A stretch of 33,587 bases of DNA from Chiloscyllium plagiosum (Eukaryota). The notes beneath the pieces are model-generated. The model made no database searches, was not told where the DNA came from, and was given only the letters and a program-made list of their open reading frames with translations. The DNA lies in the NCBI RefSeq assembly GCF_004010195.1, contig NW_025214660.1, forward strand, positions 1 through 33,587. Reading direction: 5' to 3'. Below are positions 1-33,587 of the stretch, in pieces. Each line of letters starts with the position of its first letter. Positions within the stretch are counted from its first letter, which is position 1. Position numbers and translations under genes: made by a program.

Positions 1-188
1 TCTCCCCACCCCCACCCTCCTCTAGCTTATCTCTCCACGCTTCAGGCTCACTGCCTTTATTCCTGATGAAGGGCTTTTGCCCGAAACGTCAATATCGAAG
101 CTCCTTGGATGCTGCCTGGGCTGCTGTGCTCTTCCTGCGCCGCTGGTCCGGAGTCTGGTTTCCAGCATCTGCAGTCATTGTTTGTACC
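1..188 (+). mobile_element. Penelope-like element 3' end / pseudo-LTR (cut by window start)
   Basis: 1-150 is gap-free colinear with 604-753, which directly follows a GIY-YIG C-terminal peptide; contains CTGATGA..GAAAC motif. Confidence 0.85.
56..95 (+). ncRNA. Minimal type I hammerhead ribozyme motif (PLE-associated)
   Basis: CTGATGA (63-69), extra A, stem II GGGC-TTTT-GCCC (71-82), GAAA (83-86), palindromic ACGT with GTC triplet (88-90); stem I is weak. Confidence 0.65.
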
Positions 189-238
189 TTTTTAATTCCC
201 AGTTGCAGTATTTATATAGCTGGTACAGTTAAGTTTCT

Positions 239-342
239 GGTAGAGACAATAGCTGTGGATGCTGGAGGCCAGATTCTGGATGGTGGTGCTGGGGGAGCAC
301 AGTGGTTCGGGCAGCATCCGGGGAGCTTCGAAATCGACGTTT
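239..342 (-). mobile_element. Inverted pseudo-LTR segment of Penelope-like element
   Basis: Reverse complement of 84-188 and of 687-753, with many A>G differences as read on +. Confidence 0.85.
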
Positions 343-3479: not shown

Positions 3480-3770
3480 AAACTTGCATCTAATCCAGTA
3501 GCCATCAAATCTTCTATCATTATTGCGTTTTTTAGTCATCTTTGTGTCCCTCCCAATTTGACTCCGGTTGCACCCCTCAGGTGAACCATCATTGTCATCA
3601 GTATTCAGAACTGAATACTGGTTGGCAAGTGGGATTCACCTGGGGGACTTCTGCAGTTTTTCTGTTCTTCTTGACAGTCTGCTGCTTGCCCATTCTCCTT
3701 GTTTGCTTTTCACCTGCAGGATGACCACATCAATAACTATACCAATCACAAAGCACTCAATGTGACCGAT
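3480..3770 (-). mobile_element. Probable CR1 ORF1-region remnant
   Basis: Nucleotide resemblance to shark CR1 ORF1-region sequence, from memory only; highly decayed. Confidence 0.4.
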
Positions 3771-4080
3771 GCACTATCGTTTTGCCAGCTGATATTCAAG
3801 CTCTGAAATCAGGACTTTTTTTGACACCCCTACCCCCCTCATTCAACTGGCTATCCAGAAGACATGAAATATGCTGGAATTCCCAGATAAGGCATACACT
3901 GTAGAGCTCTAAACAGCTCTACCAATCCTCTACCTGTTAATTCATAAAGCTACTGCTAATGAACCTTACTTGAAAATTAGAGTTAAAACTCACCAATGGC
4001 TCCCCTCTATTCTGTTGGTATCTCTTAAATTCAGGGAAGCTCACTCGATGTTTTGCTTTAGATTTTTAAATTTCCCCAGT

Positions 4081-4440
4081 TAGAATCATGGAATCATAGA
4101 ATCCCTGCAGTGTAGAAAGAAGCCATTTGACGCATGTGAGTCTGCACTGACACTCTGAACAGCATCCCACCCAGAGCCAATTCCCCCCCCCCCCCTCCTA
4201 TTCCTAACCCTGCATATACTATGGCTAATCCATCCAGGTTGCACATCCCTGGACACTACAGACAATCTACCATGGCCAACCCACTTAACCTGCATGTCCG
4301 TGGACTGTAGGAGGAATCTGAGCACCCTGCGAATTCCAAGCAGACACTTGAAAACTCCATATGGTCACCCAGGGATGGAATTGAACCCGGGTCCCAGATG
4401 CTAAGAGGCAGCAGTGCTAACCTCTGAGCTACTGTGCCAA
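4081..4440 (-). mobile_element. HE1-like tRNA-derived V-SINE
   Basis: On -: A box TAGCTCAGAGG, B box GGTTCAATTCC, CR1-type (ATTCTATG)n tail; homologous to copies at 13831, 15486 and 19082. Confidence 0.85.
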
Positions 4441-4620
4441 CCAAGTCGTGTAGACGCAATCCCTAACTTTAGAAAAAGAGAAGCACTGCAGTAATACTCA
4501 CCAGCCAATTAACTGAAGACTCTCCTCCATATCACTTATTTTTCCTTCTTTTGATTTCAAACCTGGCACACAATTGGTTCACTGTTTCTCATGATTTCCC
4601 CCTCTTTAACTGCTGGTCCC

Positions 4621-4655
4621 CAATTTAGAAGATATCAATTTAGAAGATATCAATT
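4621..4655. repeat. 15-bp tandem duplication
   Basis: CAATTTAGAAGATAT x2 plus CAATT. Confidence 0.9.
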
Positions 4656-4989
4656 ACTCCCAAGTCTGCTACTTCTGATTCATTCCTCTCCCCAATTGTA
4701 ATAATTTACAATCAGCATGATTGGCAGTTCAACAGAAATCAACTGCTTTCTGCAGTCATTGCAAAATGTTGCCGAAATGGAAAACTGTTTAACTTAAGTC
4801 ATCTCTGTCAGATCTAACTTGATTGCCATGAATGTATGTGCCCTGTGGTTTGCAGATTGCTGCAGCGTCATTGCCTATTCTTTAGCCATGTTTCAAGTCC
4901 CTCTCAATCACTACTTACAAAATACTTGGCTGTCATTGACTGTAGCCATAACAAGAAAAATCCCATTCCTAATTAGCCAATATTCCATC

Positions 4990-17227: not shown

Positions 17228-17930
17228 GAGTCACAGAAATGTACAGCATGGAAACCGAGCCATTGATCCAACGTATCCATGCTGACCAGGTATCCTAAAT
17301 AAATCTAGTCCCATTTGCCGGCACTTGGCCCATATATCCCTCTTAACCCTCCCTATTCATATACCGATCTATATGCCTTTTTAAATGTTGTAATTGTATC
17401 AGCCTCCATCACTTCCTTGCCCATGCCTGCTCTCAAATCTCCTTCCATATACTATAATCCCTTTAGCCACAAATACGATATCCAACTACTTCTTGTTTTG
17501 GTCTCGACTGCTTTCTGTGGCAGCAAATTCCACAAGCTCACCACTCAGGGTGAAGAACTTTCTCCTCAGCTCAGTTCTAAACTGTTTTACCCCATATCCT
17601 AAGGCTATGACGCCCATTCTGGGCGCCCACAATCATTGGGAACATATACTATTGTTGCAGCAAAGCCTTACCCTATCAATGCACTTCATGATTTTATAAA
17701 TTTCTATAAGGTCACCCCCCCCAGCCTCCGATGCTCCAGGGAAAACAGCCATAGCTTATTCAGCCTCTTCCTAAAGCTGAAACCCTGTAACCCTGGCAAC
17801 ATTCTTGTTTATCTTTTTCAATCCCTTTCAAGTTTCATAACATTCTTCCCATAGGTGGGAGGCAGAATTGCACACAATATTCCAAAAGTGGCCTAACCAA
17901 TTTCCAGTACAGCTGCAACATGACCTCCCA
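17228..17930 (-). mobile_element. CR1 3' fragment (same subfamily as 15767) with replaced internal segment 17418-17667
   Basis: 17228-17417 and 17668-17930 align with 15767-15953 and 16095-16333. Confidence 0.85.
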
Positions 17931-17934
17931 AATA

Positions 17935-18918
17935 GTGGCTGGAATGGCATGAATTTATGAAGCCAAAATAATGCTTGATTACTGGAATTCTTCAAGGATG
18001 TAGAGTTTGAGGGGGAGCCAATGGATGTAGTTTATTTGGACTTTCCAAAGGCTTTCGACGAAGTCATACAAAAGGAATCAACATGTAAAATTAATGTGCA
18101 TGGGCTTGGGGGTAGAGTATTGAGATGAATAGAAAACTGGGTGGCACAGAGGAAACAAAGTAGTAATAAATAGGTCTTTTTCCGAAATCCTAATAGGGTA
18201 ACACCGGGATTAGTGCTAGGATCCCAGCTATTCACCAGATATATAAATGATTTAAGTGAGGGAATTAAATGTAGCAGAGCCAAATTTGTAAATGATACAA
18301 CTGAGGGTGAGCTGTGAGAGGATGCAGAGATGCTTTACTGTGGCTTGGACAAACTGAGTGGGTGAGCAAATGAATAGCAGATGCAATATAATGTGGATAA
18401 TTATGCGGTTATCCACTTTGCTACCAAAGTTGGGAAGGTGGATTATCATCTGAGTGCTATAAATTGAAAGTGATCAAATGTACAAATAGAATAAGGTGTA
18501 CACTATTCATTAAAGGTAAGTGTGCAGGTGCAGTAGGCAGTAAAGTAAGTATTTTGGATTTCAGAATGAGAAGATTCGGTTACAAGAGCAGAGATGCCTT
18601 GCTGCAACGATGGTATATGTTCCTGATGATTGTGCCGCCCAGAATGGGTGATCATAGCCTTAGGATATGGGGTAAAACAATTTAGAACTGAGCTGAGTAG
18701 AAACTTCTTCACCCTGAGTGGTGAGCTTATGGATTTGCTGCCACAGAAAGCAGTCGAGACTAAAACGAGTAGTAGTTGGATATCGTATTTGTGGCTAAAG
18801 GGATCATAGCATATGAAAGGAAATGTGAGCGCAAGCTGTTGAGTTGGATAATCAGCCTTGAACATAATAAATGGTGGAGCAGTCTACCACTACTCCTATT
18901 TTCTTTGTTTCTATGATT
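17935..18918 (+). mobile_element. CR1 RT-to-3' end fragment with internal deletions
   Basis: 18021 MDVVYLDFPKAFDEV; later LVLGSQLFTRYINDL..AKFVNDT; tail TTTCTATGATT. Confidence 0.85.
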
Positions 18919-30595: not shown

Positions 30596-30805
30596 CAGGG
30601 CTGAAAATGTGTTGCTGGAAAAGCACAGCAGGTCAGGCAGCATCCAAAGAGCAGGAGAATCGATGTTTCGGGCATGAGCCCTTCTTACTCATGCCCGAAA
30701 CGTCGATTCTCCTGCTCCTTGGATGCTGCCTGACCTGCTGCACTTTTCCAGCAACACATTTTCAGCTCTGATCTCCAGCATCTGCAGTTTTCACTTTCTC
30801 CTAGA
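30596..30805. mobile_element. Fold-back PLE pLTR-derived mini-element with 12-bp TSD
   Basis: 83-bp arms 30596-30678 / 30688-30770, 9-nt loop; TGATTTATACAG duplicated at 30587-30598 and 30806-30817; arms homologous to 680-740. Confidence 0.9.
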
Positions 30806-33090: not shown

Positions 33091-33100
33091 GATACATCAA

Positions 33101-33587
33101 CTCACTCTCTCACTCACTCACTCACTCACTCACTCACTCACTCACTCACTCACTCACTCACTCACTCACTCACTCACTCACTCACTCACTCACTCACTCA
33201 CTCACTCACTCACTCACTCACTCACTCACTCACTCACTCACTCACTCACTCACTCACTCACTCACTCACTCACTCACTCACTCACTCACTCACTCACTCA
33301 CTCACTCACTCACTCACTCACTCACTCACTCACTCACTCACTCACTCACTCACTCACTCACTCACTCACTCACTCACTCACTCACTCACTCACTCACTCA
33401 CTCACTCACTCACTCACTCACTCACTCACTCACTCACTCACTCACTCACTCACTCACTCACTCACTCACTCACTCACTCACTCACTCACTCACTCACTCA
33501 CTCACTCACTCACTCACTCACTCACTCACTCACTCACTCACTCACTCACTCACTCACTCACTCACTCACTCACTCACTCACTCACTC
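33101..33587. repeat. (CTCA)n / (TGAG)n tetranucleotide array running off the window end
   Basis: Uninterrupted from 33109 to 33587 (about 120 units), with a CTCACTCT lead-in. Confidence 0.98.

Follow-up and report, generated by a model that had tools for sequence, protein, structure and literature searches.

Introduction

In the available parts of the papers cited here, A-to-G hypermutation is described in avian retroviruses, where, as at the locus reported below, an element copied by reverse transcription had nearly half of the adenosines of its long terminal repeat or inverted repeat region turned into G (PMC12925331). Those retroviruses are exogenous, whereas our case concerns a non-viral Penelope-like element (PLE) that several individuals carry in their inherited DNA, that has an unedited source locus and in which CpGs decayed later. 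DNA editing by APOBEC has been found in LTR retrotransposons fixed in vertebrate genomes, and it resembles the present changes in being clustered, one-way, strand-biased and polarised against the family (PMC4866542). However, APOBEC produces G-to-A changes via C deamination of cDNA, while the changes here are A-to-G, affect sense and antisense pieces on one strand and are tied to double-strandedness; the word ADAR occurs 0 times in the main text of that paper. ADAR hyper-editing of inverted repeats in RNA likewise gives dense A-to-G clusters in fold-back substrates with depletion of 5' G (PMC4365171, PMC3197674), this depletion being an ADAR motif (PMC4365171). Such edits are RNA-DNA mismatches, whereas the G studied here is genomic and repeated between individuals, and 3'-G enrichment is not significant.

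EN+ PLEs of the Neptune and Nematis type share with our locus a tandem plus inverted arrangement, a hammerhead-like core, variable tail ends and, in a sister copy of it, a Cys-rich linker before a GIY-YIG-like domain (PMC8557442, PMC11167929). Hammerheads occur in the pLTRs of PLEs (PMC8557442, PMC11167929), a CX2-5CxxC linker between RT and EN is a Neptune/Nematis trait (PMC8557442), and PLE reverse transcription starts at internal tail sites, with both target strands cut and extended (PMC11167929). PLE structures are also described as troubling short-read assemblies (PMC8557442). The available text of both descriptions (PMC8557442, PMC11167929) contains neither RNA editing recorded in copies nor a captured flank between facing tails.

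Our literature search, with most subscription journals outside its scope, found no ADAR-edited PLE copies in germline DNA in the texts available. A 2015 review by Knisbacher and Levanon reportedly covers DNA and RNA editing of retrotransposons and may discuss the idea. A germline case of an ADAR-edited retroelement is likewise absent from the available text of PMC5974252 and PMC3197674. G alleles at edited sites have been ascribed to selection on ordinary mutations (PMC7186786), and within these sources prior descriptions of A-to-I-like genomic change concern either such selection or exogenous retroviruses only.

Results

Organization of the PLE locus

The stretch of DNA analysed, hereafter the window, comprised bases 1-33587 of contig C101255 in an assembly of Chiloscyllium plagiosum, and the assembly searched contained 3.56 Gb in 101,977 contigs. 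Bases 1-753 of the window hold pieces of a PLE that is sense on the + strand, arranged as follows.

1-83, + strand: end of the PLE 3' untranslated region, running into a hammerhead-like core; gap-free against 604-686 with 2 differences and without an A>G shift
63-86, + strand: putative hammerhead-like core, with CTGATGA at 63-69, a short stem-loop and GAAA at 83-86
84-188, + strand: arm 1, a sense PLE tail that ends where tails of the family usually do; its 8 A>G and 1 A>T lie within 119-153
189-193, + strand: T5 run joining the tail to the spacer, a candidate template-jump junction judged from its sequence
194-238, + strand: spacer, 45 nt of old LINE flank from G000:C25:11711763, essentially unedited
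239-342, + strand: arm 2, a PLE tail in inverted orientation with 13 + strand A>G, of which two read CA>TG
343-454, + strand: unedited sense sequence with the final PLE ORF codons, at the end of the endonuclease region (frame 344-451)
455-753, + strand: 3' untranslated region with a second hammerhead-like core (666-689), and an unedited tail that is cut short; varies between assembly places

The frame at 344-451 was nearly identical to the ORF piece's C-terminus in a sister copy, L112. This L112 piece gave a weak Pfam GIY-YIG match (17.7 bits, E=0.0046; below the 22.6 cut-off), and the 36-aa piece of the window alone gave no Pfam match, only the last 36 codons lying in the window. The L112 translation contains a CX2-5CxxC linker ahead of the GIY-YIG-like domain, and by this linker between RT and EN the PLE fits, as far as the translation can tell, the Neptune or Nematis clade. 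The partial tandem, inverted 5' copy and tail form the anatomy of the window, L002, L004, L005, L007 and L112. An Rfam scan returned no match at gathering score for the cores at 63-86 and 666-689, which resemble hammerheads by their motif, and a promoter scan was empty.

Several other repeats were seen in the window. At 30596-30770, two PLE tails from a related subfamily, inverted relative to each other, meet at the hammerhead loop, with arms of 83 nt around a loop of 9 nt, and no A>G cluster was seen in them. An inverted repeat of ~240 nt in LINE-like sequence, 87-94% complementary, lies at 17425-17666 and 18596-18836 around 0.9-1.2 kb, and a long simple repeat of CACT units occupies 33093-33587, up to the window end.

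A-to-G changes in both arms

The preliminary description had reported that 1-150 and 604-753 align without gaps, and its counts were reproduced in full, with 5 mixed differences in 1-118 (at 10, 42, 87, 91 and 94) and, within 119-150, A>G at 119, 120, 139, 142, 145, 146 and 150 and A>T at 136. To polarise the changes, we took the majority letter in each column of 24 tails of the matching subfamily at other loci, so that polarity is independent of 604-753 as a partner. Because these 24 reference loci were found with the edited query, and are thereby biased towards G, the polarity is conservative. By this reference, arm 1 carried 8 A>G (153 being added) and 1 A>T. Arm 2, for which at least 12 A>G on the + strand had been claimed, carried 13, at 243, 245, 252, 257, 267, 268, 282, 293, 294, 304, 309, 320 and 321. 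Two of them stand as CA>TG (256-257 and 303-304), and this arm also has G251A and a 1-nt deletion.

Taken together, 21/55 adenines of the two arms had become G, all on the + strand, and T>C was 0. The binomial p for this share was 6e-28 against a 1% rate and 8e-14 against 5%, the background of A>G in unedited copies being 48/5196 A over 28 alignments (~1%). Other substitutions in the arms numbered 7, including the two C>T of CA>TG; G>A was limited to 2, and sense-strand G-to-A clustering of the APOBEC type was not found in them. A was the majority letter at every edited site, most weakly at 145 (17/24), 153 (17/22), 320 (18/24) and 243 (13/18). G as the ancestral state was rejected, since the 24 matched tails and the copy L007 on C25 (see below) have A as the family state. 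The polarisation that the preliminary description had called for thus returned A as ancestral and the 21 A>G as derived, strand-specific and confined to the arms. Its own counter-explanation, that the G-rich variant is a widespread subfamily, does not agree with the 7 places at which the spacer occurs in the assembly.

A pooled majority of all 103 tails was discarded as a reference, for it mixed two subfamilies, missed the edits at 145 and 320 and made false calls at 96, 98, 106, 328 and 330. What looks like a single edit can be a subfamily variant, for example in a 1001-copy subfamily differing at two tail positions, and ~20 tails genome-wide have GG where the window has 145-146 but lack any other A>G.

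Adenines with a 5' G were edited in 3/16 cases versus 18/38 for the others in the window (p=0.068), a trend only, and those with a 3' G in 7/15 (p=0.54), without enrichment. Edits in arm 1 were patchy (0/5 A in 164-186 and 0/7 A in 84-109), and at most 1/12 A had changed in the spacer. Folded as a single hairpin, the arms reached -182 kcal/mol (z -18.8) on the + strand and -118.5 on the - strand, the stronger + fold being expected when A-U pairs are turned into G-U pairs on one strand. The same strand was changed in both arms, each in a pattern of its own, so that copying of one edited sense RNA in mirror image does not account for them. An ordinary inverted PLE pair, L096 (G000:C37:19904164), contrasts with the window in that its arms carry the same variants mirrored, as if from one template.

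Source of the spacer

The search for the 189-238 spacer elsewhere, proposed in the preliminary description, was run over the assembly and led to an unedited source on C25. The spacer sequence was present at exactly 7 places, at six of them together with the edited arm; at the seventh, L007, it is accompanied by an arm 2 that is mostly unedited and by an identical 342/343 junction. Spacer 194-238 and L007 were identical at 43/45 positions. The upstream flank on C25 was unique in the assembly and the downstream flank resembled an old LINE, and window 226-241 corresponded to one copy of the C25 target-site duplication (16 nt, 1 mismatch), the second copy of which follows the 3' end of the element. 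On these sequence matches, C25 is the source of the spacer and of arm 2, and its unedited copy may be one allele of a polymorphic locus. The 3' tail on C25 ends at the equivalent of 150, too short to pair with the arm 2 sites 243-268 (six edits), so that a full tail like arm 1 would be needed. The C25 copy (G000:C25:11711763-11712080; L007:1501-1819) also skips internally from what corresponds to 374 to what corresponds to 613, and its arm has lost one base at each of two points.

G alleles in other individuals

Contigs from five of 24 runs were compared, X1, X2, X3 and X7 on the window and X1-X4 on L007. The DNA label of these runs was guessed or absent, their contig sets were genome-sized (1.5-3.0 Gb), and one run may be from the assembly's own sample. 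Contigs of X2 (194-339 and 164-223), X3 (194-332) and X7 (106-176) had 0 differences to the window, and another X2 contig (112-180) had 3. The X1 contig (160-302) differed once, by C at 256, which together with G at 257 makes CG. The T5/spacer junction was bridged by X1 160-302 and X2 164-223, the latter with <31 letters on one side. X7 lacked cover of 255-293 and X1 lacked cover of the C25 flanks, and neither was counted as absence. The G alleles are present in samples S1, S2, S3 and S6 of studies P1 and P2, and the confirmation in genomic data that had been suggested was thus obtained from contigs of four samples with 0-1 differences. Since random editing would not repeat, the same pattern in different individuals points to inheritance, not to ongoing RNA editing. 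The CG kept at 256-257 in X1 supplies part of the predicted CA>CG>TG series, in agreement with the earlier interpretation of the two CA>TG sites as decayed new CpGs.

On L007, a 496-nt contig of X4 (sample S4) connected the unique C25 flank to an arm that differs by 11 and then by 7 letters, exactly as many as the edited arm predicts. In X2 and X3, the flank contigs stop where the path from arm 1 comes in, and the C25 3' junction was supported in X2 and X4 with 1 difference.

Copies of the edited module in the assembly

The six module places (the window, L002, L003, L004, L005 and L006) showed 0/3920 pairwise differences in 60-364, compared with 183/4156 (4.4%) in 365-753. Private changes numbered 0 in 1699 nt of 60-364, where 25.5 were expected, versus 30 in 1998 nt of 365-753 (p=8e-12). 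An N gap adjoined 4/5 of the other module copies versus 4/23 control loci, and the window itself starts at contig base 1. Target-site duplications of 11-19 nt had 1 mismatch each in L004, L005 and L006 and 0 in L002, and none was found at L003. The host insertions were aged, their left arm and right tail differing at 8/156 and 5/184 positions, and the flanking arms of L005 share a subfamily variant absent from the module. In X2 the contig depth of the edited arm (28.5) was close to the sum of two upstream paths (12.2 + 10.2), with depth not to be equated with copy number.

An amplified edited subfamily of six copies is unlikely in view of the identity of 60-364 against 4.4% divergence beyond it, the aged hosts and the depth. 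As judged from these sequences, one real 305-nt module was probably pasted into several loci by gap filling; recent chimeric insertions with different 3' templates are a possible origin of the six copies. The join between 1-364 and 365-753 may be an assembly artefact, in which case 604-753 does not belong with 1-360. For the pLTR hairpin reading of the preliminary description, this leaves the changes in the arms intact and casts doubt on 1-150 and 604-753 as pLTRs that belong to a single insertion.

A second edited locus

On the - strand of G000:C37, at ~34027924-34029371 (L112 reversed, 3530-4977; also L110), a 1448-nt edited tract extends across sequence of two PLE families; compared with the family majority it has 191 differences, 163 of them A>G. 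With adenines grouped by 5' neighbour, the share edited was U 0.79, A 0.64, C 0.29 and G 0.18 (Fisher p=9e-8), and among those with a 3' G it was 0.47 versus 0.30-0.43 (p=0.21). The 5'-G depletion of ADAR, named in the preliminary description as a check, is therefore clear at C37 and only a trend in the window. Nearly all changed adenines went to G, 163/166 at C37 and 21/22 in the window.

Editing was distributed unevenly along this locus. The inverted piece of the second PLE family was edited at 26/57 A and the sense part paired with it at 30/74. The sense remainder was edited at 93/239 A over 857 nt and had no inverted partner in 9.9 kb, so that a long-range or trans duplex would be needed there. 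The inverted tail of the window's PLE family was edited at 14/45 A, and the sense body (0/67 A) and tail (0/24 A) were unedited. The LINE flanks were unshifted (5/172 and 1/20 A) and continuous across the insertion. As in the window, the edited part lies 5' and unedited sense PLE lies 3'. The two-family junction was unique in the assembly, where the locus has no N gap. By its length and neighbour order, as read in the assembly, C37 is a stronger example than the window. A third copy, L100 (G000:C98101:4875-4997), is a sense PLE tail with 7 A>G in a pattern unlike the window's, directly after an N gap.

The edited-arm screens were narrow, and no genome-wide rate is derivable from them. The first gave 28 matches, namely 5 of the module, L100 as a new multi-G copy and 22 with at most 1 extra G. 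The degenerate-pattern screen that found C37 gave 9 (6 of the module, L110 edited and 2 unedited), the third gave 7 (6 of the module and 1 unedited) and the fourth 0. An all-against-all screen of 118,498 polarised columns flagged one C>T cluster besides the module and C37 and nothing else; having missed L100 and most module copies, it was insensitive. There were no G>A clusters in the 118,498 polarised columns of the compared loci. A G>A pattern tried as a control proved useless, as it matched the 1001-copy subfamily, and none of its matches was clustered among the 100 listed.

Discussion

We consider it probable, at roughly 85%, that ADAR edited double-stranded RNA and that the Penelope reverse transcriptase then copied the edited RNA into germline DNA. 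This reading follows from the finding that sense and antisense pieces were changed on one strand and only where pairing is possible, the edits being confined to sequence able to form dsRNA, that is, to the arms versus the spacer and to the C37 tract versus its LINE flanks. The naming of ADAR as the likely enzyme draws mostly on the order of 5' neighbours at C37. The core of the hyper-editing and reverse transcription proposed in the preliminary description therefore stands, with changes that are derived, one-stranded, limited to the arms and found in several individuals.

The proposed series of events starts with a step seen in the assembly, the insertion of a PLE with an inverted 5' arm into an old LINE at C25, from which the window's spacer and arm 2 derive. 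The arm 2 part of a + strand read-through RNA of C25 would then have formed a duplex with a complete sense tail (arm 1), and ADAR would have deaminated ~40% of adenines in both strands while the unpaired spacer was spared. The reverse transcriptase may have copied the C25 RNA back to 194 and begun again on its pairing partner, at the end that tails usually have, which would give arm 1 - T5 - spacer - arm 2. The new CpGs would later decay by CA>CG>TG, as partly seen in X1.

We lean slightly, and tentatively, towards this joining of two paired RNAs by a template jump over a hairpin that existed beforehand. In the latter case, which is covered by the main reading and which we regard as possible, an unedited arm 1 - spacer - arm 2 was inserted first, transcribed as a hairpin with a 50-nt loop, edited and copied again. 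The pairing of the arms in exact register, the editing of both on one strand and the local fold-back at C37 with edits in both of its arms speak for it; yet it requires two insertion events, and among the 7 spacer places there is no unedited arm 1 junction, in an assembly gapped at such repeats. The single transcript including the spacer, as the preliminary description had it, is thus possible only, with no unedited precursor of the arm 1-spacer junction in the assembly. We also considered RNA-templated gene conversion, in which the edited RNA would have overwritten its own source locus in place, because the X4 contig joins the C25 flank to the edited arm and because the C37 tract lies between continuous LINE flanks without a separate source junction in the assembly. 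The 38 nt of shared spacer exceed the 31-letter contig word size, so the X4 contig may be a false join, and we regard in-place rewriting as unlikely.

Explanations that dispense with reverse transcription of ADAR-edited RNA fare far worse. If ADAR had deaminated a DNA strand directly, in the RNA:DNA hybrid of an R-loop or an insertion intermediate, the edits that seemingly lie at the source locus in X4 would be explained, and such editing is reported for hybrids in model substrates (Zheng 2017, cited in PMC12925331). However, sense and antisense pieces are changed on the same + strand, unlike in editing of first-strand cDNA, and the changes stop at the repeat borders and spare the spacer and LINE flanks, where an R-loop should run on. 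Editing of 40% of adenines is also far above the level known for hybrids, and overall direct DNA editing seems very improbable. We give slightly less credence still to another adenine-biased mutator, such as reverse-transcriptase misincorporation, A:T mutagenesis of the polymerase-eta type or a single-strand adenine deaminase. The A>T at 136 and G251A among the edits and the weak neighbour bias of the window would suit it, but mutators that turn A into any letter do not match the almost exclusive change to G in the window and at C37, and neither the limitation of the changes to parts able to pair nor the ADAR 5' order at C37 would be expected.

The explanation to which we assign the smallest probability is an artefact of assembly, polishing or cDNA contamination, with the G-rich module absent from genomic DNA. 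The multiplicity of the module does look artefactual, given 0 versus 30 private changes, the N gaps and a window that begins at contig base 1. Against this, contigs of four other runs, from genome-sized sets, contain the module sequence with no more than 1 difference, and the CG/TG difference at 256 between samples is a DNA-type change. Copying of ADAR-edited RNA into the germline accordingly remains the reading that we prefer.

In practical terms, the locus is a warning that a unique edited module, pasted into several gaps of a short-read assembly, can mimic an amplified subfamily. The unedited source locus and the CpG intermediate make the proposed route testable. If the in-place variant were true, RNA editing would rewrite existing germline loci and not only seed new insertions. 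For PLEs, the edits serve as a tag indicating that the copied RNA was a read-through transcript with sense and antisense pieces, and they mark points of template change, which bears on how the tandem and inverted ends of Penelope elements form. More broadly, these results provide sequence evidence that A-to-I RNA editing can become an inherited DNA change through a retrotransposon.
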